From Escherichia coli (GTDB taxonomy: Bacteria; Pseudomonadota; Gammaproteobacteria; Enterobacterales; Enterobacteriaceae): 64,000 nucleotides of DNA. The translations under genes were made by a program, and so were the position numbers. Below the pieces are notes generated by a model. The model searched no databases and had not been told where the DNA came from. It saw only the letters and a list, made by a program, of their open reading frames with translations. Location of the stretch: NCBI RefSeq assembly GCF_024223415.1, contig NZ_CP100503.1. One strand, given 5' to 3'. The stretch's first letter is position 1. Each line of letters starts with the position of its first letter. Shown one piece after another: positions 23,488-52,057 of the stretch.

Positions 23488-24599
23488 GAACGTCATTAGT
23501 CACCCGTGAAGAGATGATCGAGGCAATTGAACAGCACACTGCCTGTATCAGTACCAGGGATATACCGGGCGTTATTGCCAACTACTTCATGATCACCAAA
23601 CAACTTTACCGGAGAAAGGACAAGAACGCGGTTCACCGCATTCTGCTAACCGATATCCGCGAATACCTGCTCGAACAGGGTCATCTGAATTACGCAACCG
23701 TCGCAGCCGAAACACGCAAGGAGGCACACAGAATGAAAGCAACTAACGTTAAATCAGAAAAAATTCATGCAACTTCAGTTCAGGAATCAGAGCTGGTGGT
23801 TGTTCAGAATCAGTCTGATGAAATTCCCGTTCTGGAATGGCTGGGAGTGCGTGTAGTGACAACCAAGATCCTTGCTAAGGGGTATGGGACCGATGCGGAT
23901 AACATCAAGAAGAACTTTTCCCGTAATGCTGAACGTTTTTGTGAAGGCAAGCATTTCTATAAAGTTATTGGAGATGATTTGAACAATTTGCGGGTGACTT
24001 TAAGTAACTCACAAAATCCCATCTCTCCTAAAGCCCGTTCACTCATCCTCTGGACAGAACGCGGCGCTGCCCGTCACGCTAAAATGCTCGAAACCGATCA
24101 GGCATGGGCATTCTTTGAAAAACTGGAAGACAGCTACTTCCGGCAAAAAGAACAGCAACCGGTTGCAATCCCCCAAACATTACCAGAAGCCCTACGCCTG
24201 GCTGCCGAACTGGCTGAACAAAAGCAGCTTCTGGAACAGAAAGCCCACCAGCTAAATCAGCAGCTGGTGGCCGCCGCTCCTAAGGTCGATTTTGCCGACC
24301 GGGTATCAGTAGCTAAAGGGATCCTGATTGGGAATTTTGCAAAGGTTGTTGGACTTAAGCAAAACGCGCTGTTTGCCTGGTTACGGGAGAACGGCATCCT
24401 GATAGCGTCCGGTGGACGTAAAAATGTGCCGTTCCAGCAGTACATCAACGCGGGGTATTTCACGGTGAAAGAAGTGGTGCTGGATGATGAAGATGGCTAC
24501 CAGATACGGTTGACGCCTCAATTAACGGGTAAAGGCCAGCAGTGGTTGACGCGTAAACTGCTCGATGCTGGCTTGTTAAAACCGGTGGCGGCTGAATAA
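23484..24599 (+). CDS. ant: Antirepressor Ant paralog A (KilA-C C-terminal domain)
   Basis: 371 aa; translationally coupled to icd; C-terminal domain shared with KilA (43795-44595) and other Ant copies. Confidence 0.7.
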   Translation: MRTSLVTREEMIEAIEQHTACISTRDIPGVIANYFMITKQLYRRKDKNAVHRILLTDIREYLLEQGHLNYATVAAETRKEAHRMKATNVKSEKIHATSVQESELVVVQNQSDEIPVLEWLGVRVVTTKILAKGYGTDADNIKKNFSRNAERFCEGKHFYKVIGDDLNNLRVTLSNSQNPISPKARSLILWTERGAARHAKMLETDQAWAFFEKLEDSYFRQKEQQPVAIPQTLPEALRLAAELAEQKQLLEQKAHQLNQQLVAAAPKVDFADRVSVAKGILIGNFAKVVGLKQNALFAWLRENGILIASGGRKNVPFQQYINAGYFTVKEVVLDDEDGYQIRLTPQLTGKGQQWLTRKLLDAGLLKPVAAE

Positions 24600-30580: not shown

Positions 30581-31645
30581 TCATTCAGCCGCCACAGGTT
30601 TTAACAAGCCAGCATCGAGCAGTTTACGCGTCAACCACTGCTGGCCTTTCCCCGTTAATTGGGGCGTCAGCCGTATCTGGTAGCCCTCTTCATCATCCAG
30701 CACCACTTCTTTCACTGTGAAATATCCGGCGTTTATGTACTGCTGGAACGGTACATTTTTACGTCCACCGGACGCTATCAGGATGCCGTTCTCCCGTAAC
30801 CAGGCAAACAGCGCGTTTTGCTTAAGTCCAACAACCTTTGCAAAATTCCCAATCAGGATTCCATTAGCCACTGATACCCGGTCGGCAAAATCGACTTTAG
30901 GAGCGGCGGCCACCAGCTGCTGATTTAGCTGGTGGGCTTTCTGTTCCAGAAGTTGCTTTTGTTCAGCCAACTCGGCAGCCAGGCGGAGGGCTTCGGGGAG
31001 TGTCTGGGGGATCGCTGGAGAAGCAGCGCTAACCTGCTGCAACTCCTCCAGCTTGTCGATCAACGAACGGCGGACCGCTTTTGACTCGCGCGCGGCAACT
31101 CGCAGGGCTTGTTTGTAGGTCATGGTTATGACCTCAAAAGAGCGCCCAGCCCTTGTGCCATGGGATTTTACGAAAGTTTCGTAAAATTCCCCATCAAGTT
31201 CATCCTTAATTCTATTGAGAAAATCGTTATTGCGGATCTCATTTTCCCCACATAGCTTGCGCGCCTCATTGACCATCTTTAACAGTGTCTGGCTGTCGAT
31301 TGTGTCGCCCGTACTGGGGATAACATCCATGGCTGGTAGTGGTGTGGATTCTATCAAAGGCTTTGTAACGACAACATCTGGTTTGCTTGCTTTCATTCTG
31401 TGTGCCTCCTTGCGTGCTTCGGCGGTTACGGTTGCATAATCAAGACGACCCTGTTCGAGCAGGTATTCACGGATATCAGTTAGCAGAATGCGGTGAACCG
31501 CGTTCTTGTCCTTTCTCCGGTAAAGTTGTTTGGTGATCATGAAGTAGTTGGCTATAACACCAGGAATGTCCCTGGCGCTGATACAGATTGTGTGCTGTTC
31601 AATAGCCTCGATCATTTCTTCACGGGTAACTAATGACGTTCTCAT
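30581..31645 (-). CDS. ant: Antirepressor Ant paralog B (KilA-C C-terminal domain)
   Basis: 354 aa; N- and C-terminal regions near-identical to Ant A/C, central region resembles Ant D. Confidence 0.7.
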   Translation of the reverse strand: MRTSLVTREEMIEAIEQHTICISARDIPGVIANYFMITKQLYRRKDKNAVHRILLTDIREYLLEQGRLDYATVTAEARKEAHRMKASKPDVVVTKPLIESTPLPAMDVIPSTGDTIDSQTLLKMVNEARKLCGENEIRNNDFLNRIKDELDGEFYETFVKSHGTRAGRSFEVITMTYKQALRVAARESKAVRRSLIDKLEELQQVSAASPAIPQTLPEALRLAAELAEQKQLLEQKAHQLNQQLVAAAPKVDFADRVSVANGILIGNFAKVVGLKQNALFAWLRENGILIASGGRKNVPFQQYINAGYFTVKEVVLDDEEGYQIRLTPQLTGKGQQWLTRKLLDAGLLKPVAAE

Positions 31646-31863
31646 AGCCCCTCCTGAGCAGAAGCGTTAACAGGGAGGCACCAGTAACTGAGAGAGTTGC
31701 GCGAGTCAGTAGAAAAGCGTGCAGAGAAAATGCAGGGAGCGTCAGGAAGCTGAGAACGGGCCTCATCTTCTGTTGGTGCAATGACGAAGTGATAGTGACG
31801 TTTTTGACAAGAATAGAAGCGCCAGATAAATTCCGGGCGTGCGCAAGGATTGGCATTAACCAT
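31642..31863 (-). CDS. icd: Icd-like small protein
   Basis: 73 aa; identical to Icd copy C; overlaps ant B start. Confidence 0.6.
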   Translation of the reverse strand: MVNANPCARPEFIWRFYSCQKRHYHFVIAPTEDEARSQLPDAPCIFSARFSTDSRNSLSYWCLPVNASAQEGL

Positions 31864-32023
31864 AGTTACGGCCTCACAAGTTGAATTAACAACCTGCTAC
31901 CCGCTGTCAAACAGGTGGCAGGACGTGACAGGGTTGACAGACTGGCACTTGTGAAACCAGCAGGCCGAAGCCTCCCCATCACGCCCCACCATAATTCGGG
32001 CGTAACGCGGTTTTACGGACACA

Positions 32024-32170
32024 AAAATACCGCAATAACGGAGTGATGCGGTTGTCCGCACAAGTATTCAGGCTGTCAAACCCGGTCGCAGAATTTGCTA
32101 CGACGCAGGAACTATAAGCCTGAACGACGGGAAGATCAATAGTCTGGCGTCCAATAGTAGTTTATTTGTT
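32024..32170 (-). ncRNA. c4: Putative c4-like antisense RNA of module B
   Basis: Colinear (no indels) with the module C leader; GGTTTGACAGCC element at 32071-32082 (rc). Confidence 0.3.
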
Positions 32171-33547: not shown

Positions 33548-33564
33548 ATTGCTCTAATAAATTT
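33548..33564 (+). promoter_or_regulatory. C1 operator of immI-like module C
   Basis: ATTGCTCTAATAAATTT, perfect consensus. Confidence 0.65.
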
Positions 33565-33574
33565 GATTTTTTAG

Positions 33575-33721
33575 GGCAAATAAACTACCATTGCGCACTG
33601 CCCTATTGATCTCCTTACCGTTCAGGCTTATATTCATGCCGTCGTAGCAAATTCTGCGACCGGGTTTAGCAGCCTGAATACTTACGCGGACAACCGCAGA
33701 TATCCGATATTGCGGTATTTT
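33575..33721 (+). ncRNA. c4: Putative c4-like antisense RNA of module C
   Basis: Leader with GGTTTAGCAGCC (33663-33674) and hairpin ACCGCAGA-N-TGCGGT plus ATTTTC (33693-33721); complementary element CTGCTAACC at 33805-33813. Confidence 0.3.
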
Positions 33722-33881
33722 CATGTCCGTATAACCGCGTTACGCCCGAATTATGGTGGGGCGTGATGGGGAGGCTTCGGCCTGCTGGTTTCGTAAGTGC
33801 CAGTCTGCTAACCCCGTCACGTCCTGCCACCTGTTTAGCAGCGGGTCGCAGGTTGTTTTATCAACTTACGAGGCCGTAACT

Positions 33882-34103
33882 ATGGTTAATGCCAATCCTT
33901 GCGCACGCCCTGAATTTATCTGGCGCTTTTACTCCTGCCAAAAACGTCACTATCACTTCGTTATTGCACCAACAGAAGATGAGGCCCGCTCTCAGCTTCC
34001 TGACGCCCCATGTATTTTCTCTGCCCGCTTTTCCACTGATTCGCGCAACTCTCTCAGTTACTGGTGCCTCCCTGTTAACGCTTCTGCTCAGGAGGGACTA
34101 TGA
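33882..34103 (+). CDS. icd: Icd-like small protein
   Basis: 73 aa from ATG at 33882; stop overlaps ant C start. Confidence 0.6.
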   Translation: MVNANPCARPEFIWRFYSCQKRHYHFVIAPTEDEARSQLPDAPCIFSARFSTDSRNSLSYWCLPVNASAQEGL

Positions 34104-35212
34104 GAACATCGTTAGTTACCCGTGAAGAGATGATCGAGGCAATTGAACAGCACACTGCCTGTATCAGTACCAGGGATATACCGGGCGTTATTGCCAACTA
34201 CTTCATGATCACCAAACAACTTTACCGGAGAAAGGACAAAAACGCGGTTCACCGCATTCTGCTAACCGATATCCGTGAATACCTGCTCGAACAGGGTCAT
34301 CTGAATTACGCAACCGTCGCAGCCGAAGCACGCAAGGAGGCACACAGAATGAAAGCAACTAACGTTAAATCAGAAAAAATTTATGCACCTTCAGTTCAGG
34401 AATCGGAACTGGTGGTTGTTCAGAATCAGCCGGATGAAATTCCCGTTCTGGAATGGCAGGGAGTACGTGTCGTGACAACCGAAACTCTTGCTAGAGGGTA
34501 TGGGACCGAAACTAATAACATCAAAGTTAACTATACGCGTAATGCTGATCGCTTTGAGGAAGGTAAACATTACTTTCTACTAACTGGTTCAAAATTAAAA
34601 GAATTGAAGGACAAGGTTACTCAAAGTAACTTAGTCGCACCGCGAGCAAAGCACCTCACTCTCTGGACGGAACGCGGCGCAGCCCGCCACGCTAAAATGC
34701 TCGAAACCGATCAGGCATGGGCATTCTTTGAAAAACTGGAAGACAGCTACTTCCGACAAAAAGAACAGCAACCGATCGCAATCCCCCAGACGCTTCCTGA
34801 AGCTCTGCGCCTGGCTGCCGAACTGGCTGAACAAAAGCAACTTCTGGAACAGAAAGCCCACCAGCTAAATCAGCAGCTGGTGGCCGCAGCCCCTAAAGTC
34901 GAGTTTGCCGACCGGGTATCAGTGGCCAAGGGGATCCTGATTGGGAATTTTGCAAAGGTTGTTGGACTTAAGCAAAACGCGCTGTTTGCCTGGTTACGGG
35001 AGAACGGCATCCTGATAGCGTCCGGTGGACGTAAAAATGTGCCGTTCCAGCAATACATCAACGCCGGGTATTTCACGGTGAAAGAAGTGGTGCTGGATGA
35101 TGAAGATGGCTACCAGATACGGTTGACGCCCCAGCTAACTGGGAAAGGCCAGCAGTGGTTGACGCGTAAACTGCTCGATGCTGGCTTGTTAAAACCGGTG
35201 GCGGCTGAATAA
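34100..35212 (+). CDS. ant: Antirepressor Ant paralog C (KilA-C C-terminal domain)
   Basis: 370 aa; closest to Ant A throughout. Confidence 0.7.
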   Translation: MRTSLVTREEMIEAIEQHTACISTRDIPGVIANYFMITKQLYRRKDKNAVHRILLTDIREYLLEQGHLNYATVAAEARKEAHRMKATNVKSEKIYAPSVQESELVVVQNQPDEIPVLEWQGVRVVTTETLARGYGTETNNIKVNYTRNADRFEEGKHYFLLTGSKLKELKDKVTQSNLVAPRAKHLTLWTERGAARHAKMLETDQAWAFFEKLEDSYFRQKEQQPIAIPQTLPEALRLAAELAEQKQLLEQKAHQLNQQLVAAAPKVEFADRVSVAKGILIGNFAKVVGLKQNALFAWLRENGILIASGGRKNVPFQQYINAGYFTVKEVVLDDEDGYQIRLTPQLTGKGQQWLTRKLLDAGLLKPVAAE

Positions 35213-42511: not shown

Positions 42512-42592
42512 ACGTAGCAGGAATCCACGTCCTTCAGGGCGTGGAGGATGTCAATGGAGCCTCCCCTTCTCTGCCGACGTTCAGGGGGGTTT

Positions 42593-43630
42593 ATGAAAAC
42601 ACCTCTCGTCACCCGTAATGACATAGCCGAAGCGATCGCCCTGCATACTGCCTGTATGCCGACACGGGAGATCCCCGGCGCAATTGCCAACTATTTCATG
42701 ATAACCAGACGTTTTTATACCCGAACAGATAAGGCTGTGATCAACAAGCTACTGATAGCCGAGATCAGGGATTATTTGATTGAACAAGGACGTCTACGTT
42801 ACGCAACAGTGGCAGCAGAAATGAGAAAGGAGGCACATAGAATGACCGGTAATAATTTAAATGTTGAAAAACCAGCACCTGTTGCTTCAGCTACGCCAGC
42901 ACCAGCCGTGAATATCATCCCCAACACCGGAGACACAATCGACAGCCTGACACTGTTAAAGATGGTCAATGAAGCGCGTAAGTTATGTGGGGAACCAGAG
43001 GTTCGGAACAACAAATTCATCGAAAAAATACTCGATGAGCTTGATGGTGAGCACTACACAAAAAGTGTAGTGGAAAAAATGAACAAAACATCAATGCTTG
43101 TCATAACCATGACTTTCAAACAAGCCCTGCGAGTCGCCGCGCGCGAGTCAAAAGCGGTCCGCCGTTCGCTGATCGACAAACTGGAAGAATTACAGCAGGC
43201 AAACTCACCTACCCCATCGATCCCCCAGACATTACCAGAAGCCCTACGCCTGGCTGCCGAGTTGGCAGAACAGAAAATGCAGCTGGAACAACAGCTGGTG
43301 GCCGCAGCCCCTAAAGTCGATTTTGCCGACCGGGTATCAGTGGCCAATGGAATCCTGATCGGGAACTTTGCAAAGGTCGTTGGACTTAAGCAAAACGCCC
43401 TTTTCTCATGGTTGCGCCAGAACGGCATTCTCATGGCTTTTGGTGCGCGCAAAAACGTACCGCGCCAACAGTACATCAACGCCGGGTATTTCACGGTGAA
43501 AGAAGTGGTGCTGGATGATGAAAATGGCTACCAGATACGGCTGACGCCCCAATTAACGGGTAAAGGCCAGCAGTGGTTAACTCGCAAGCTACTTGATGCT
43601 GGTTTGTTAAAACCAGTAGCAATAGGTTAA
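42593..43630 (+). CDS. ant: Antirepressor Ant paralog D at the native position upstream of kilA
   Basis: 345 aa from MKTPLVTRND; preceded by 38 bp remnant of icd 3' end (…LPFSADVQGGL*) then the IS right end. Confidence 0.7.
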   Translation: MKTPLVTRNDIAEAIALHTACMPTREIPGAIANYFMITRRFYTRTDKAVINKLLIAEIRDYLIEQGRLRYATVAAEMRKEAHRMTGNNLNVEKPAPVASATPAPAVNIIPNTGDTIDSLTLLKMVNEARKLCGEPEVRNNKFIEKILDELDGEHYTKSVVEKMNKTSMLVITMTFKQALRVAARESKAVRRSLIDKLEELQQANSPTPSIPQTLPEALRLAAELAEQKMQLEQQLVAAAPKVDFADRVSVANGILIGNFAKVVGLKQNALFSWLRQNGILMAFGARKNVPRQQYINAGYFTVKEVVLDDENGYQIRLTPQLTGKGQQWLTRKLLDAGLLKPVAIG

Positions 43631-43643
43631 CAAAAGAAAAAAA

Positions 43644-43667
43644 CCTGCCAGCAAACTGGCAGGTTTC
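43644..43667 (+). terminator. Rho-independent terminator after ant D
   Basis: CCTGCCAG-CAAA-CTGGCAGG followed by TTTC. Confidence 0.6.
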
Positions 43668-43708
43668 TGAGCAGATCGTCCAACCCGATCTGGATCGAGC
43701 CAGAAAAA

Positions 43709-43725
43709 TTTGCTCTAATAAATTT
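43709..43725 (+). promoter_or_regulatory. C1 operator upstream of kilA-repL
   Basis: TTTGCTCTAATAAATTT. Confidence 0.65.
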
Positions 43726-43794
43726 CGTTTTCTAAGTGCAAAGAATCACCATTTCGAGCTGGTGATTGAAGGTTGATGCAAATTTGGAGAAAAA

Positions 43795-44595
43795 ATGCAA
43801 CAAACATTCAATGCGGATATGAATATATCAAACCTTCATCAAAATGTCGATCCTTCAACCACTCTGCCTGTTATTTGTGGTGTTGAAATTACGACCGACC
43901 GCGCTGGCCGTTACAACCTTAATGCTCTACACAGAGCGAGCGGACTCGGTGCCCATAAAGCGCCAGCTCAATGGCTAAGAACGCTGTCAGCCAAACAGCT
44001 CATCGAAGAGCTGGAAAAAGAAACTATGCAGAATTGCATAGTTTCGTTCGAAGGCCGTGGCGGCGGCACTTTTGCCCATGAATTGCTCGCTGTGGAGTAC
44101 GCAGGCTGGATTTCTCCCGCGTTTCGGCTGAAGGTAAACCAGACATTTATCGACTATCGAACCGGAAGATTACAACCTGCTATTCCGCAGAGTCTCCCTG
44201 AAGCTCTCCGTTTGGCTGCCGACCTGGCAGAGCAAAAGCAACGGCTGGAGCAAAAAATGCTTATGGATGCACCTAAAGTCGAATTCGCTGAACGCGTTGC
44301 TACCGCCAGCGGGGTTCTAATCGGCAACTATGCCAAAGTGCTCGGCCTGGGCCAAAACTATCTCTTCACCTGGTTGCGTGATAACGGAATTCTGATCGCA
44401 ACCGGTGAACGCAGGAACGTCCCCAAACAAGAATACATATCTCGTGGGTATTTCACCCTTAAAGAAACCGTGATCGATACAAGCAATGGAAGCAGGATTT
44501 CTTTCACGACTCGTATAACCGGCAAAGGTCAGCAGTGGCTGATGAAGCGATTGCTTGATGCTGGTGTGCTGGTACCTGTCGCGGCAACGCGCTAA
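43795..44595 (+). CDS. kilA: KilA (KilA-N domain plus KilA-C domain)
   Basis: 266 aa, size and position as in P1; C-terminal domain homologous to Ant C-termini. Confidence 0.75.
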   Translation: MQQTFNADMNISNLHQNVDPSTTLPVICGVEITTDRAGRYNLNALHRASGLGAHKAPAQWLRTLSAKQLIEELEKETMQNCIVSFEGRGGGTFAHELLAVEYAGWISPAFRLKVNQTFIDYRTGRLQPAIPQSLPEALRLAADLAEQKQRLEQKMLMDAPKVEFAERVATASGVLIGNYAKVLGLGQNYLFTWLRDNGILIATGERRNVPKQEYISRGYFTLKETVIDTSNGSRISFTTRITGKGQQWLMKRLLDAGVLVPVAATR

Positions 44596-44624
44596 CAGAC
44601 GTAGTAAGAACCACCAGCATTGTA

Positions 44625-45470
44625 ATGCTGGCTAAAGTCACTTTCCTGAGCTGTATAACGATGAGCGATTTTACTTTTTCTGGCTATGAATTGGCCTGCT
44701 TTGTAACACACTCCGGTCTATCCCGTAGCGCCGGGCATATCCTGTCGCAATGTGCAAATCTCGCGGCAACAACCAGTGAATACTTCATTCACAAGCCTCA
44801 CCGCCTGATCGCGGCAGAAACTGGTTATAGCCAATCAACCGTCGTTCGTGCATTCCGTGAAGCTGTAAACAAAGGAATTCTGTCTGTAGAGATTGTTATC
44901 GGCGATCACCGTGAACGTCGCGCTAACCTGTACCGGTTTACACCATCCTTTTTGGCCTTCGCACAACAAGCCAAAAATGCGCTGATTGAAAGCAAATTAA
45001 AGATCTCTTCAGCGGCAACCAAGGTTAAAGCTGTTCTCGCTAAGACATTGGCTTTATTTAATTTTTTATCCACACCCCCATGTCAAAATGATACCCCCTC
45101 CCCCTGTCAGGATGACGTGGCAATAAAGAATAAGAAGTCAGAAATTAAAAAAACAAAAAGATCAGTTTCCGGCGGTGCCGGAACGACCAGCCTCAAAAAA
45201 CTGACTTCATGGATCGCCGAGGCAAAAGCAAAGGCTGACAATCTGCGGTTATCCAAAAAACGCGCTCAAAAACATGAGTTCAAGCAGAAAGTAGAGGCGG
45301 CAGCGCGGAAATATGCTTACCTGAAGGACAAGCGTTCTCCTGATATTGGCGGGATATCAAACTTCGATAATCTGCCGCATTGCATGACAGTAAACGAAGC
45401 TCTTAATGCGGTATTAGCCAAAAATAAAGATAACGAACAATGGGGTATACCGGCAGGATTCAGAGGGTGA
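44625..45470 (+). CDS. repL: Lytic replication initiator RepL
   Basis: 281 aa ORF directly after kilA; size and position as P1 RepL. Confidence 0.7.
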   Translation: MLAKVTFLSCITMSDFTFSGYELACFVTHSGLSRSAGHILSQCANLAATTSEYFIHKPHRLIAAETGYSQSTVVRAFREAVNKGILSVEIVIGDHRERRANLYRFTPSFLAFAQQAKNALIESKLKISSAATKVKAVLAKTLALFNFLSTPPCQNDTPSPCQDDVAIKNKKSEIKKTKRSVSGGAGTTSLKKLTSWIAEAKAKADNLRLSKKRAQKHEFKQKVEAAARKYAYLKDKRSPDIGGISNFDNLPHCMTVNEALNAVLAKNKDNEQWGIPAGFRG

Positions 45471-45473
45471 TAG

Positions 45474-45490
45474 ATTGCTCTAATCTGGAG
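45474..45490 (+). promoter_or_regulatory. C1 operator at the repL stop
   Basis: ATTGCTCTAATCTGGAG. Confidence 0.5.
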
Positions 45491-45520
45491 TCACCTGGCG
45501 TTTTCAGTTTGAGGTCGGAG

Positions 45521-45766
45521 ATGCAATCTGATTTTTTACAGTTAGCGATCGCTTTTGCAGGATATGTTTGTATTGGCTTCTGTGTATACATGATCAGCCG
45601 AAGAATGCTTGTCGATATCGACCGCAAAGAACGAACAGAGGAGATCTTAGTATGGATTTTCTTTGGCGCGGTCTGGCCATTAGGGATCATGTTTGCTGCA
45701 ACATTTCTTCTGATGTGGATATTCACCCTTCCTGGTGATTTCTATAGAAAAAAAGCCAGACATTGA
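45521..45766 (+). CDS. Small membrane protein (two predicted TM helices)
   Basis: 81 aa from ATG at 45521 with GAGGTCGGAG RBS; the ORF track starts it upstream at 45440. Confidence 0.4.
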   Translation: MQSDFLQLAIAFAGYVCIGFCVYMISRRMLVDIDRKERTEEILVWIFFGAVWPLGIMFAATFLLMWIFTLPGDFYRKKARH

Positions 45767-45948
45767 TACAATCGTTACGGGTGCTTGAGGCTATCTGCTT
45801 CAGGCATTACCCGAAAAGCAGATAGAAGAAAGCCCCAGATAACATTACGCGTCCTGCAAGACGCTTAACATTAATCTGAGGCCATCTCTATGCTTAGCAT
45901 ACGTAGATTAACCCTCTCCCCTTTTAAGGAGCAAGGAATTTTTTACTG

Positions 45949-46581
45949 CTATGCCGCATTTCCAATTATGGATTCAGCGACCAGAACAACCCCATGCTTA
46001 CTTCGATCTGGGTGTTCACTCCATATCTCGGATTCAGGAATACTTACCCCGTCATAGCAAACACGTTCGCCGTCAAACGGGTAATACTGAGCGGCATCGG
46101 TGTCAAGGATAAACACTTTTAGCTCGGAAGAGCGACGGGCGATGTGTTGCCAAAGAGCTTTTCCACCTTCGTATTGCTCATTATCACTGAGCAAAACAAC
46201 ACCAGCTTTTGAGGCTACGGTTTCGTAAACAAAAGTAGCTAAACCGACATCCCGGACGGTTCCATCAACCACGATACCTTCAATCTGGGCAACATCGCTA
46301 TCCTCCCAGAACTTCCTTACCAGTACGCCTTCAAGCTGCGGGCGACGTTGAAGTTCAAGAGTAGCGACAACCTTATGGCGCATATCACCATCGATAATAG
46401 AAGGCGCAGCCTCTATTACAGCTGCAAATGGGGTTTTGGAATCCCATATAACCTGGTAAAGCACACCCTGGATGGTAACTCCGTCCAGGATCGAAAATCG
46501 ACGAGCGACAGTACCCGGGGAGTACGACATTGGAATCACAGCCATTTTAGAGTCCCCCTTTAACAGTACAGGCACAAACAT
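45949..46581 (-). CDS. Hypothetical protein
   Basis: 210 aa ORF. Confidence 0.4.
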   Translation of the reverse strand: MFVPVLLKGDSKMAVIPMSYSPGTVARRFSILDGVTIQGVLYQVIWDSKTPFAAVIEAAPSIIDGDMRHKVVATLELQRRPQLEGVLVRKFWEDSDVAQIEGIVVDGTVRDVGLATFVYETVASKAGVVLLSDNEQYEGGKALWQHIARRSSELKVFILDTDAAQYYPFDGERVCYDGVSIPESEIWSEHPDRSKHGVVLVAESIIGNAA

Positions 46582-46673
46582 CTACCTCAATAATTGTAGT
46601 TTATTAGAACATTAATAATCTAACATAAAACTCCAGACAATGTTATCGATGCATGTTTATATAAAATAGTTAT

Positions 46674-46697
46674 AAAAAAAGCTCCCGAAGGAGCTTT
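46674..46697 (-). terminator. Rho-independent terminator
   Basis: On minus strand hairpin AGCTCC-TTCG-GGAGCT followed by T7. Confidence 0.6.
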
Positions 46698-50329: not shown

Positions 50330-52057
50330 TTACTCAGAGTCACCGGCATCAATCGTGTCGCCGCTTATGAAGTTAAGCCCGCCTTTTTTGGCCATTGTCA
50401 GCGTTACACGAGTGAAGTAATCAGCGCCGTTGCGTGGGTGCATATCGTTGATAGCCGAACCCCACAGCGTGGTACGGTTGACCAGCGCCGGAGTGGTCGG
50501 ATGCTGGAACGGGATGGCCGGGACAGCATCACCAGTCACGAAGCCTGCTTTACCCGGATTTTCATCACGGACGTAGCACAGCACATCCATCGAGCTGAAC
50601 TGAATGTTCTCTGTCGTTAAGTTCTTACAAATACCAGCAGGTACTTCGTACACTTTCACGTTACCGAACAGGGTACCGATGTAGTGAACATACGGAGTCT
50701 GGATATAGTCTTCGGCTGGCTGGAAGAAATCCTTCGGCAACTGTTTGAAGAAAGATGCTGCATCAGCACCAGCAAACATCCCCATCGCACCAGAAGATTT
50801 AACGCGCTCAATAATGTCGCGATATACAGTCTGGAATTTGCCACGAATGATGGTTGCCCATACATCAAAGGACTGGTTAACCGGCAGAGCGATGTCAAAG
50901 GTGTCGTTCGCAAGAGTACGCCAGATCATGATGCGAAGACGCAGCATATCCTGTTCATGAGACAGGTATTCCTTCAGGGTGCGGAACTGTAGGGAACCCA
51001 GGTCCAGACCAAATTCACGCTGTGCTTCATACGCCGCCTGTACCGTGTGCTCAGCCGCGATAACGAACTGGCTTGGGAACAGGGTGTATTTCTTCATTTC
51101 GTGGTTGATCAGCGGGATCAGCTCAGGAGCGGCTTCAATATTGATTTCCGTCTCAATTGCGATCTCAGTGCCTTTATCCGGCGCTTTGGAGAACGACAGG
51201 GCAATCTGACCAATGTTGTAGTTCAGAGAGCAGGTAACAGTGATTTGCTCACCAGCAGCATTAGTAAACGAGTGAAGTAGGCTGCCGGAACCGTTATCAA
51301 CAACAGACTTAATACGGTTAACGTAGATATTAGTGCGACCTTTTCGGATTGGTACATTCTGGCCTTCGAAGTCTTCCATCTTGAAGGTTGCGGTTTTGCT
51401 GGTGCCATCGGAGCTTGCCACCAGCACATAGCGGCGGCGTAACTGGCTGTACACACCGACGGATTGCATGTCCAGAACATCACCAGCAGCATAAGAACCA
51501 AAAGAGGAACCTGCCACGTTAAAGACTTCATAGATGTCGGACTGGTCACGCGTAACCGGAATGAAGGTACACGCATCAGCGGTAGCTGCCCCCAACTGAA
51601 CAGGCAGGATCATCGCGAGGAATAAAGGCAGACGCATAACACCGTCAGAAACGCTCATCATCTCTGCTGCGACGGATTCCAGCATCGCTTTATTAGTGGC
51701 ATCCATGCTATTGCGGGTAGACTCAATCAGGCAGTTTTCCAGCGTCTGGTGGCAGGAGGCCAGAATTTCCGGACGCGGCATAGATTTATGTGCTGCGGCG
51801 TAGTCAGCCAGTGCACTTGCCCACGCTGTAGCGATTTGAGCGGTGGCATTATCAGAGATACCCGCAAAAACCGGGTCTTTACGTGCAGCTTCAAGGATAG
51901 ATGCGGCACGCGCGGCATCATCTTTAATGAATTGGTTATCAGTACCGAACTGCGCAGTGCTTGCCCAGCCAAGCACAGCTTTAGAGCGTTTTGCGATATC
52001 TGCAATACGATTCTGGTATTCGCGTAAGTTACTCAATTTACTCTTCCTTAAACACAA
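50330..52057 (-). CDS. Putative major head/structural protein (gene adjacent to parS, P1 gene 23 position)
   Basis: 575 aa ORF starting next to parS; assignment by position only. Confidence 0.4.
   Translation of the reverse strand: MCLRKSKLSNLREYQNRIADIAKRSKAVLGWASTAQFGTDNQFIKDDAARAASILEAARKDPVFAGISDNATAQIATAWASALADYAAAHKSMPRPEILASCHQTLENCLIESTRNSMDATNKAMLESVAAEMMSVSDGVMRLPLFLAMILPVQLGAATADACTFIPVTRDQSDIYEVFNVAGSSFGSYAAGDVLDMQSVGVYSQLRRRYVLVASSDGTSKTATFKMEDFEGQNVPIRKGRTNIYVNRIKSVVDNGSGSLLHSFTNAAGEQITVTCSLNYNIGQIALSFSKAPDKGTEIAIETEINIEAAPELIPLINHEMKKYTLFPSQFVIAAEHTVQAAYEAQREFGLDLGSLQFRTLKEYLSHEQDMLRLRIMIWRTLANDTFDIALPVNQSFDVWATIIRGKFQTVYRDIIERVKSSGAMGMFAGADAASFFKQLPKDFFQPAEDYIQTPYVHYIGTLFGNVKVYEVPAGICKNLTTENIQFSSMDVLCYVRDENPGKAGFVTGDAVPAIPFQHPTTPALVNRTTLWGSAINDMHPRNGADYFTRVTLTMAKKGGLNFISGDTIDAGDSE

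Follow-up and report, generated by a model that had tools for sequence, protein, structure and literature searches.

The C1 operators of P1-like phage-plasmids follow a 17-bp asymmetric consensus, ATTGCTCTAATAAATTT (PMC8546580), and C1 bound at one of them, Op53, represses the promoter P53 (PMC9948254). In the GenBank annotation of P1, this promoter, also termed PkilA, uses the TCTAAT of the operator as its −10 element, with TGc directly in front of it. Another operator is annotated in P1 (NC_005856) three bases after the stop codon of repL, where the protein_bind feature at 51575-51591 is named Orlf ("former Op55") and reads ATTGCTCTAATTATAAC. The equivalent operator of P7 (NC_050152) is annotated as Op(rap) and has the same offset from the repL stop. 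Literature text searches on the operator names (Op55, Op53, etc.) returned unrelated papers only; hence, operator status rests on the GenBank annotations. The P1 genes that follow, rlfA-rlfB-pmgF, constitute region 5 of the eight that are highly variable among P1-like phage-plasmids (PMC9603915), and in one plasmid their place is taken by "3 orfs between repL and bplB" (PMC6906374). All three genes of P1 were non-essential in a CRISPRi screen (PMC10695390).

The corresponding locus was analyzed in a 64,000-nt stretch of Escherichia coli DNA, the whole of which is termed the window (features are listed in Table 1). Among plasmid sequences, 657 records matched the query, 300 of which covered at least 80% of it, and one record, IncY plasmid NZ_CP057563.1, was 100% identical to it; positions 45440 to 45960 of the window matched Escherichia fergusonii plasmid pRHB23-C02_3 with 100% identity. 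The DNA belongs to a phage-plasmid of the P1-like (IncY) kind. A 17-mer, ATTGCTCTAATCTGGAG, was present on the plus strand at 45474-45490, with the trinucleotide TAG separating it from the repL stop. The first-pass annotation of this DNA had described a C1 operator starting 4 bp after repL, and the placement was correct, the first base of the 17-mer being the fourth after the stop. Position and strand were those of the monovalent C1-controlled operators Orlf of P1 and Op(rap) of P7, the first 11 bases were identical to theirs, and the repL backbone was 98 to 99% identical, all of which identifies the 17-mer, at the level of sequence, as the local copy of the already cataloged operator Orlf/Op55.

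The identity to P1 and P7 (98 to 99%) extended from 44600 through 45484, where the 11-mer ends (megablast and blastn). No similarity to either phage was detected by blastn after this base until position 46675, on the 3′ side of bplB. These boundaries indicate that only the 11-bp core belongs to the conserved repL backbone and that everything from base 12 onward is cargo. Bases 12 to 17 accordingly differ from those of P1 Orlf, and orf81 and hok/sok-type cargo occupy the DNA downstream, where P1 has rlfA-rlfB. A comparison with the P1 region after repL had been proposed in the first-pass annotation; it placed Orlf at the same site and also revealed the replacement of rlfA/rlfB and the junction inside the operator, both of which had been missed.

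Table 1. Positions of the features discussed, in window coordinates
Feature	Position	Strand	Basis or remarks
Op53/OrepL-type C1 operator TTTGCTCTAATAAATTT	43709..43725	+	One mismatch to consensus; overlaps kilA-repL promoter; homologue of P1 OrepL/PkilA
repL, lytic replication initiator, oriL inside	44625..45470	+	ORF list; stop TGA 45468-45470; 98-99% DNA identity to P1/P7
Orlf/Op55 conserved 11-bp core ATTGCTCTAAT	45474..45484	+	Exact core match; contains TGnTCTAAT element
Non-consensus 3′ portion of 17-mer, CTGGAG	45485..45490	+	0/6 vs AAATTT; first bases of cargo slot; TATAAC in P1/P7
Variable cargo slot replacing P1/P7 rlfA-rlfB-pmgF	45485..46674	.	blastn boundaries vs P1/P7 at 45484 and 46675
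GAGG, Shine-Dalgarno-like	45511..45514	+	Read from sequence; 6 nt upstream of orf81 ATG
orf81, 81 codons	45521..45766	+	ATG 45521; stop TGA 45764-45766
Promoter-like site TAGAAA-16-TACAAT with upstream TG	45745..45772	+	Promoter scan; inside 3′ end of orf81, placed to start the hok-type leader
hok/sok-type leader RNA remnant	45779..45953	+	Rfam RF01794, 91.4 bits, E = 8e-21
orf210, probably 198 aa from ATG 46545	45949..46581	-	phrog_7522, E = 7e-147; convergent with orf81

The window contained 15 sites with three or fewer mismatches to ATTGCTCTAATAAATTT, compared with 0.32 expected for 64,000 nt. The site at 45474 lay outside this set, having six mismatches, all in positions 12 to 17. Matches to ATTGCTCTAAT with no more than one mismatch numbered 16 where 1.6 were expected. 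As a sequence match, the site at 45474 therefore exceeds chance, but for its first 11 bases only: core positions 1 to 11 agreed exactly with the operator consensus (11/11), while the A/T-rich bases expected at positions 12 to 17 were absent and position 15 was a G. A position weight matrix (PWM) was trained on the remaining annotated operators of P7, 20 in number, which do not vary at positions 3, 5, and 7 to 10 and of which 19 have T at position 15; the set is small, and the scores depend on the pseudocount. With this matrix, the left 11 positions of the site contributed +19.9 bits, the maximum possible, and the right six contributed −15.2 bits, giving a total of 4.7 bits. The score of P1 Orlf was 15.5 bits, and the weakest annotated P7 operators scored 7.6 and 11.2 bits in leave-one-out tests, so that the window site fell below all 20. 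By the PWM, it is outside the score range of the curated operators. P1 Orlf itself has no consensus 3′ portion (1/6 match, with A at position 15) and yet is curated as an operator, indicating that C1 might be able to bind the core alone, above all when assisted by the co-repressor Lxc. Useful binding of C1 at 45474 is, from these scores, a real possibility but not a probable one. The description of the site as a C1 operator was thus borne out for the 11-bp core and for the position shared with Orlf/Op55 and Op(rap) but not for positions 12 to 17 or for the overall score. A further weak operator-like sequence, AATGTTCTAATAAACTA, at 46597-46613 on the minus strand just upstream of orf210, scored 9.6 bits with four mismatches, including those at the invariant C5 and at T15, and is probably not an operator.

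Natural variation at the junction was examined in IMG/VR by using the last 24 bases of repL as an anchor, the operator being excluded; the 51 loci recovered, together with the window and the five reference loci in which the anchor is present, gave a set of 57. The core ATTGCTCTAAT was unchanged in all 57, with variation on both sides of it. The left six bases were TGATAG, TAATGA, or TGATAA, and the right side was of the window type in 50 loci (CTGGAG, with CTGGGG once) and of the P1/P7 type, TATAAC, in 7. P7 joined a window-type left flank to a P1-type right side. By this count of sequenced loci, the window-type arrangement is the commoner natural form and the rlf genes of P1 are not universal, cargo of the orf81-hok/sok kind being the more usual occupant of the slot. 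In the window, the slot held orf81, a hok/sok leader without a hok gene, and a weakly GNAT-like minus-strand ORF, and its GC content was 0.41 compared with approximately 0.46 to 0.50 in the surrounding backbone, as is typical of acquired cargo. The slot is the same repL-bplB interval, with non-essential exchangeable cargo, as that of the published descriptions (PMC9603915, PMC6906374), but the content differs, and those descriptions include neither orf81 nor a left junction at the operator core. At the right edge of the slot, after bplB, a strong terminator-like hairpin was observed at approximately 46672-46697, with a partial sub-threshold match to Rfam STnc130, in its 3′ terminator stem.

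The first gene of the slot, orf81, had been described in the first-pass annotation as an 81-aa frame with its own ribosome-binding site (RBS), and the GAGG motif and the stop at 45766 agreed with this; the coordinates given also held apart from the start codon, which had been placed at 45522 rather than 45521. The product was matched over its full length by phrog_3772, a family of function not known (residues 1 to 81 to profile positions 1 to 81 of 81; E = 3.2e-53), and is called by PGAP as a hypothetical protein of 81 aa (WP_032313323.1). An extended frame of 108 aa (45440-45766) was rejected; the added codons overlap both repL and the operator, lack an RBS, and are absent from the allele of Salmonella phage SJ46, and the PGAP call is 81 aa. 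Hydropathy analysis detected two hydrophobic segments, at approximately residues 5 to 26 and 42 to 70, with a mixed-charge loop between them, and the C terminus is a basic tail, RKKARH. An AlphaFold2 model (mean pLDDT of 70.6) contained helices at residues 2 to 31 and 38 to 80. These analyses agree with the two-helix hydrophobic protein for which a topology prediction had been suggested, and the product is probably an inner-membrane helical hairpin. Lysine and arginine residues numbered five in the loop, four in the C-terminal tail, and none in the N-terminal tail, counts that do not settle the orientation.

Small phage proteins of the inner membrane with two transmembrane segments include the class II holins and the T4 Imm-type superinfection-exclusion proteins. 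The orf81 product resembles these in that it is ∼80 aa long, has two hydrophobic helices, ends in a short basic tail, and is likely to be expressed during lytic growth, but it has no sequence, profile, or informative structural similarity to any named family and is not encoded in a lysis cassette; the likeness is one of analogy and not of membership. Searches of Pfam, NCBIfam, PADLOC, and PDB sequences gave nothing above threshold, no defense family was matched in PADLOC-DB, and Foldseek against viral models gave no match with an E value of 0.001 or less, as expected for a two-helix hairpin. Several specific assignments were rejected. For a holin, no holin family of Pfam, PHROG, or NCBIfam was matched and the neighbors are repL and a hok/sok leader rather than a lysis cassette; for a Hok-like toxin, the sequence is unrelated and the gene lies upstream of the leader; for a lipoprotein, there is no lipobox.

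A word-indexed search with orf81 recovered 19 clusters, and a profile search that exhaustively covered 1.84 billion representatives recovered eight proteins of the same family; all derived from P1-like elements of Escherichia or Salmonella. In the searches made, the family is thus an orphan confined, on present sequences, to P1-like phage-plasmids. The SJ46 allele (83 aa) was 44% identical to orf81 and kept the two-helix architecture; its N-terminal half was divergent but equally hydrophobic, and residues 46 to 76 were identical at 29 of 31 positions, a pattern indicative of a real, architecture-constrained protein. Among the 50 window-type loci, 39 copies of orf81 were intact and 11 (∼22%) were broken by IS elements or frameshifts. 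Fourteen intact alleles contained 7 synonymous and 14 non-synonymous polymorphisms (pN/pS of ∼0.52), indicative of weak constraint. orf81 is a real but dispensable accessory gene encoding two hydrophobic helices. In RCS47 (L006, 4408-5738) and three IMG/VR loci (L009, L010, and L011), an IS element (transposase orfB) was found directly after GTTTTCAG, corresponding to window position 45507/45508; this insertion, between the operator and the start of orf81, deletes the 5′ part of the gene.

orf81 was always followed by a hok/sok-type leader. In relatives, the leader ATG is followed by a sequence encoding Hok, MKQQKAMLIALIVICLTVIV..., whereas in the window the 3′ end of a convergent ORF is present instead and, among the ORFs listed for the window, none after the ATG at 45951 was Hok-like. 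Relatives with a complete hok gene (MokW is annotated in MH422554) diverge from the window from 45914 on. A complete Hok gene followed the leader in 29 of the 50 window-type loci, and a leader remnant with a minus-strand ORF, as in the window, was found in 10; the others were one intact copy of orf81 whose contig was too short for classification past the leader and 10 of the 11 disrupted copies. The DNA directly 3′ of orf81 is therefore comparable with known type I toxin-antitoxin loci in having a bona fide hok/sok-type leader, with a toxin gene that is complete in most relatives, but differs in that orf81 is unrelated to Hok and the Hok frame is missing in the window. The convergent frame, orf210, is called by PGAP as a hypothetical protein of 198 aa. 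Its family, phrog_7522, is widespread in Enterobacteriaceae, and an 87%-identical homologue is named N-acetyltransferase by one source. The Pfam GNAT signal was below threshold for orf210 and for 9 of 15 homologues, the best Foldseek matches of its AlphaFold2 model (pLDDT of 78.9) in the PDB were GNAT enzymes with E values of 0.056 or worse, and no defense family was matched in PADLOC-DB.

The first-pass annotation had also proposed that the membrane protein is under separate repressor control downstream of repL. Such separate control may exist but is the less likely arrangement. A terminator scan made no call in the interval that separates repL from orf81, and RNA of this interval folded no better than shuffled sequence (z = 0.14). 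In SJ46, an Op53-type operator is kept before kilA and none is found after repL, where a gene for a lom-like outer-membrane protein and then the 83-aa homologue of orf81 are located; the presence of a membrane-protein gene without a post-repL operator argues against a strict coupling of the two. As no terminator separates repL from orf81, the kilA-repL operon, which C1 represses, most likely includes orf81 as its final gene, and co-transcription with kilA-repL is the default expectation from the arrangement of the genes. The Op53-type operator at 43709 is, by its homology to the P1 site, likely to be the primary point of C1 control for all transcription through repL. A strong terminator-like hairpin was also seen at 43639-43668, between ant and the kilA promoter.

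Since the −10 element of PkilA lies inside its operator, a weak operator-embedded promoter at 45474 is conceivable. The site at 45474 is likewise oriented with transcription, and its TGcTCTAAT could serve as a −10 element. Op53, however, has the full consensus 3′ portion and a better −35 element, TGGATC (3/6); the site at 45474 is a candidate promoter. A promoter scan made no call overlapping 45474 or in the 320 bp upstream of orf81, but the scan is strict and misses the established PkilA, so that its silence at 45474 is uninformative with regard to an independent promoter. In the control region (43691-43725 and 43822-43850), the antisense promoter PaskilA was detected and PkilA (P53) was missed. 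The −10 element of PkilA, TCTAAT, does not have an A at its second position, and hence the operator-embedded promoters of this phage are invisible to such a scan.

These results are best explained by a half-operator core with exchangeable cargo, in which orf81 would be read from PkilA, behind kilA and repL at the end of their operon, and would encode an accessory membrane factor; we favor this explanation with moderate confidence. The Orlf core would have been retained with the repL backbone while the cargo behind it was replaced in a single past exchange, and the two cargo forms would now be spread by homologous recombination in the flanks. Transcription of orf81 would start at PkilA, C1 at the Op53-type operator at 43709 would keep the gene silent in lysogens, and derepression or infection would lead to early production of the protein, probably with KilA and RepL. 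The half-operator at 45474 would provide at most a weak second layer of control, as a roadblock or by occlusion of a weak TGcTCTAAT-based promoter. The protein may then act as a dispensable accessory factor at the membrane during lytic growth; our best guess, by analogy, is that it excludes superinfecting DNA or modulates the integrity of the membrane.

It is unlikely that the 17-mer is, instead, a fully functional C1 operator over a dedicated promoter, in which TGcTCTAAT would be the extended −10 element and transcription would begin near 45491, such that orf81 would form an independent C1-repressed unit. The perfect core, invariant in 57 of 57 loci, does occupy the position of the curated Orlf/Op55, the orientation and the −10-in-operator layout are those of PkilA in the GenBank annotation, and the geometry is sensible, with the RBS ∼20 nt and the ATG ∼30 nt beyond the start. 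None of the six 3′ bases matches, however, and a score of 4.7 bits is below those of all 20 annotated operators; the −10 element, TCTAAT, is without an A at the second position, and the candidate −35 elements, GGATTC or AGGATT, are poor (0 to 2 of 6 positions vs TTGACA) and inferior to the TGGATC of PkilA. In addition, SJ46 has a membrane-protein gene without any operator after repL, and the curators of P1 put the predicted promoter PrlfA 94 bp downstream of the operator and not on it.

The anti-consensus right half with its very low PWM score, and the location of the junction inside the operator, would also be consistent with the 11-mer being a non-functional relic of a recombination junction. 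orf81 would in that case be cargo expressed in lysogens from an unrecognized promoter, functioning, for example, in phage exclusion or, together with hok/sok, in plasmid maintenance; the gene does accompany a hok/sok plasmid-stabilization module in 29 of 50 window-type loci, and the low GC content is that of acquired DNA. We consider this decidedly unlikely, given a core that is perfectly conserved across variants while both flanks vary, the absence of any call by the strict scan for promoter-like sites in the 320 bp upstream of orf81, and the lack of a terminator after repL, which leaves expression linked to the operon under C1 control. That orf81 is an ORF without function, present by chance in filler DNA that separates repL from the hok/sok module, is scarcely credible. 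The disruption of ∼22% of natural copies, the weak constraint, and the restriction of homologues to P1-like elements could be read in this manner, but the frame has a good RBS and ATG, a full-length PHROG match, and a PGAP call, and the SJ46 allele combines a wholly different N-terminal half that still forms an equally long hydrophobic helix with near identity over residues 46 to 76.

The favored explanation, of a retained core and exchanged cargo, implies little novelty. The position of the operator (Orlf/Op55) and the variable slot were already known, and the cargo gene was cataloged, albeit uncharacterized. The locus is an ordinary, widespread example of C1-operator-flanked accessory cargo in a P1-like phage-plasmid and not a new regulatory arrangement; what can be read as an operator is merely the core of a known one, and the locus matters little on its own. 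The border between backbone and cargo is useful for annotating IncY/P1-like phage-plasmids, which are carriers of resistance genes. If the core alone does bind C1, a minimal operator would be defined and the phase regulation of newly acquired cargo would be explained.

In a more far-reaching interpretation, the 11-bp core would be both a minimal site for C1 (plus Lxc) and an extended −10 element, a "plug" that would place incoming cargo under lytic-phase control and would also act as a micro-homology linker for cassette exchange. We regard this as very unlikely. If true, orf81 would represent a new family of membrane effectors of the lytic phase and might, for example, block DNA entry or counter host defense. 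Some support for this interpretation came from the breakpoints between the window and P7, of which 4 of ∼34 (22935, 32259, 33550, and 45484) lay within 6 bp of the edge of a C1 operator, compared with ∼0.3 expected. At three of these four, the inserted or divergent module begins with its own operator. A recombination hot spot at the operator was not adopted as the main explanation of the junction at 45484; only two cargo types share this junction, for which a single past event is enough. In a spacer of 50 to 170 bp, a junction placed at random would strike a 17-bp site 10 to 34% of the time.

Other differences from P7 were observed elsewhere in the window. Segments at 24258-24583, 30597-32127 (minus strand), and 33550-35196 were 80 to 88% identical to the immI region of P7 (c4/icd/ant) and were additional to the regular ant-kilA-repL block at 42555-45484, which suggests the presence of several antirepressor-type modules, each adjoining a C1 operator (22932, 32181, and 33548). 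Between 40806 and 42555 of the window, collinearity with P7 skips from P7 coordinate 19058 to 51364. The ∼32 kb of the P7 map not found between those points includes pro, lyz, ssb, the dar operon, lyd, cin, the tail fibers, sit, tub, and sim, and this block is rearranged or absent in the element.
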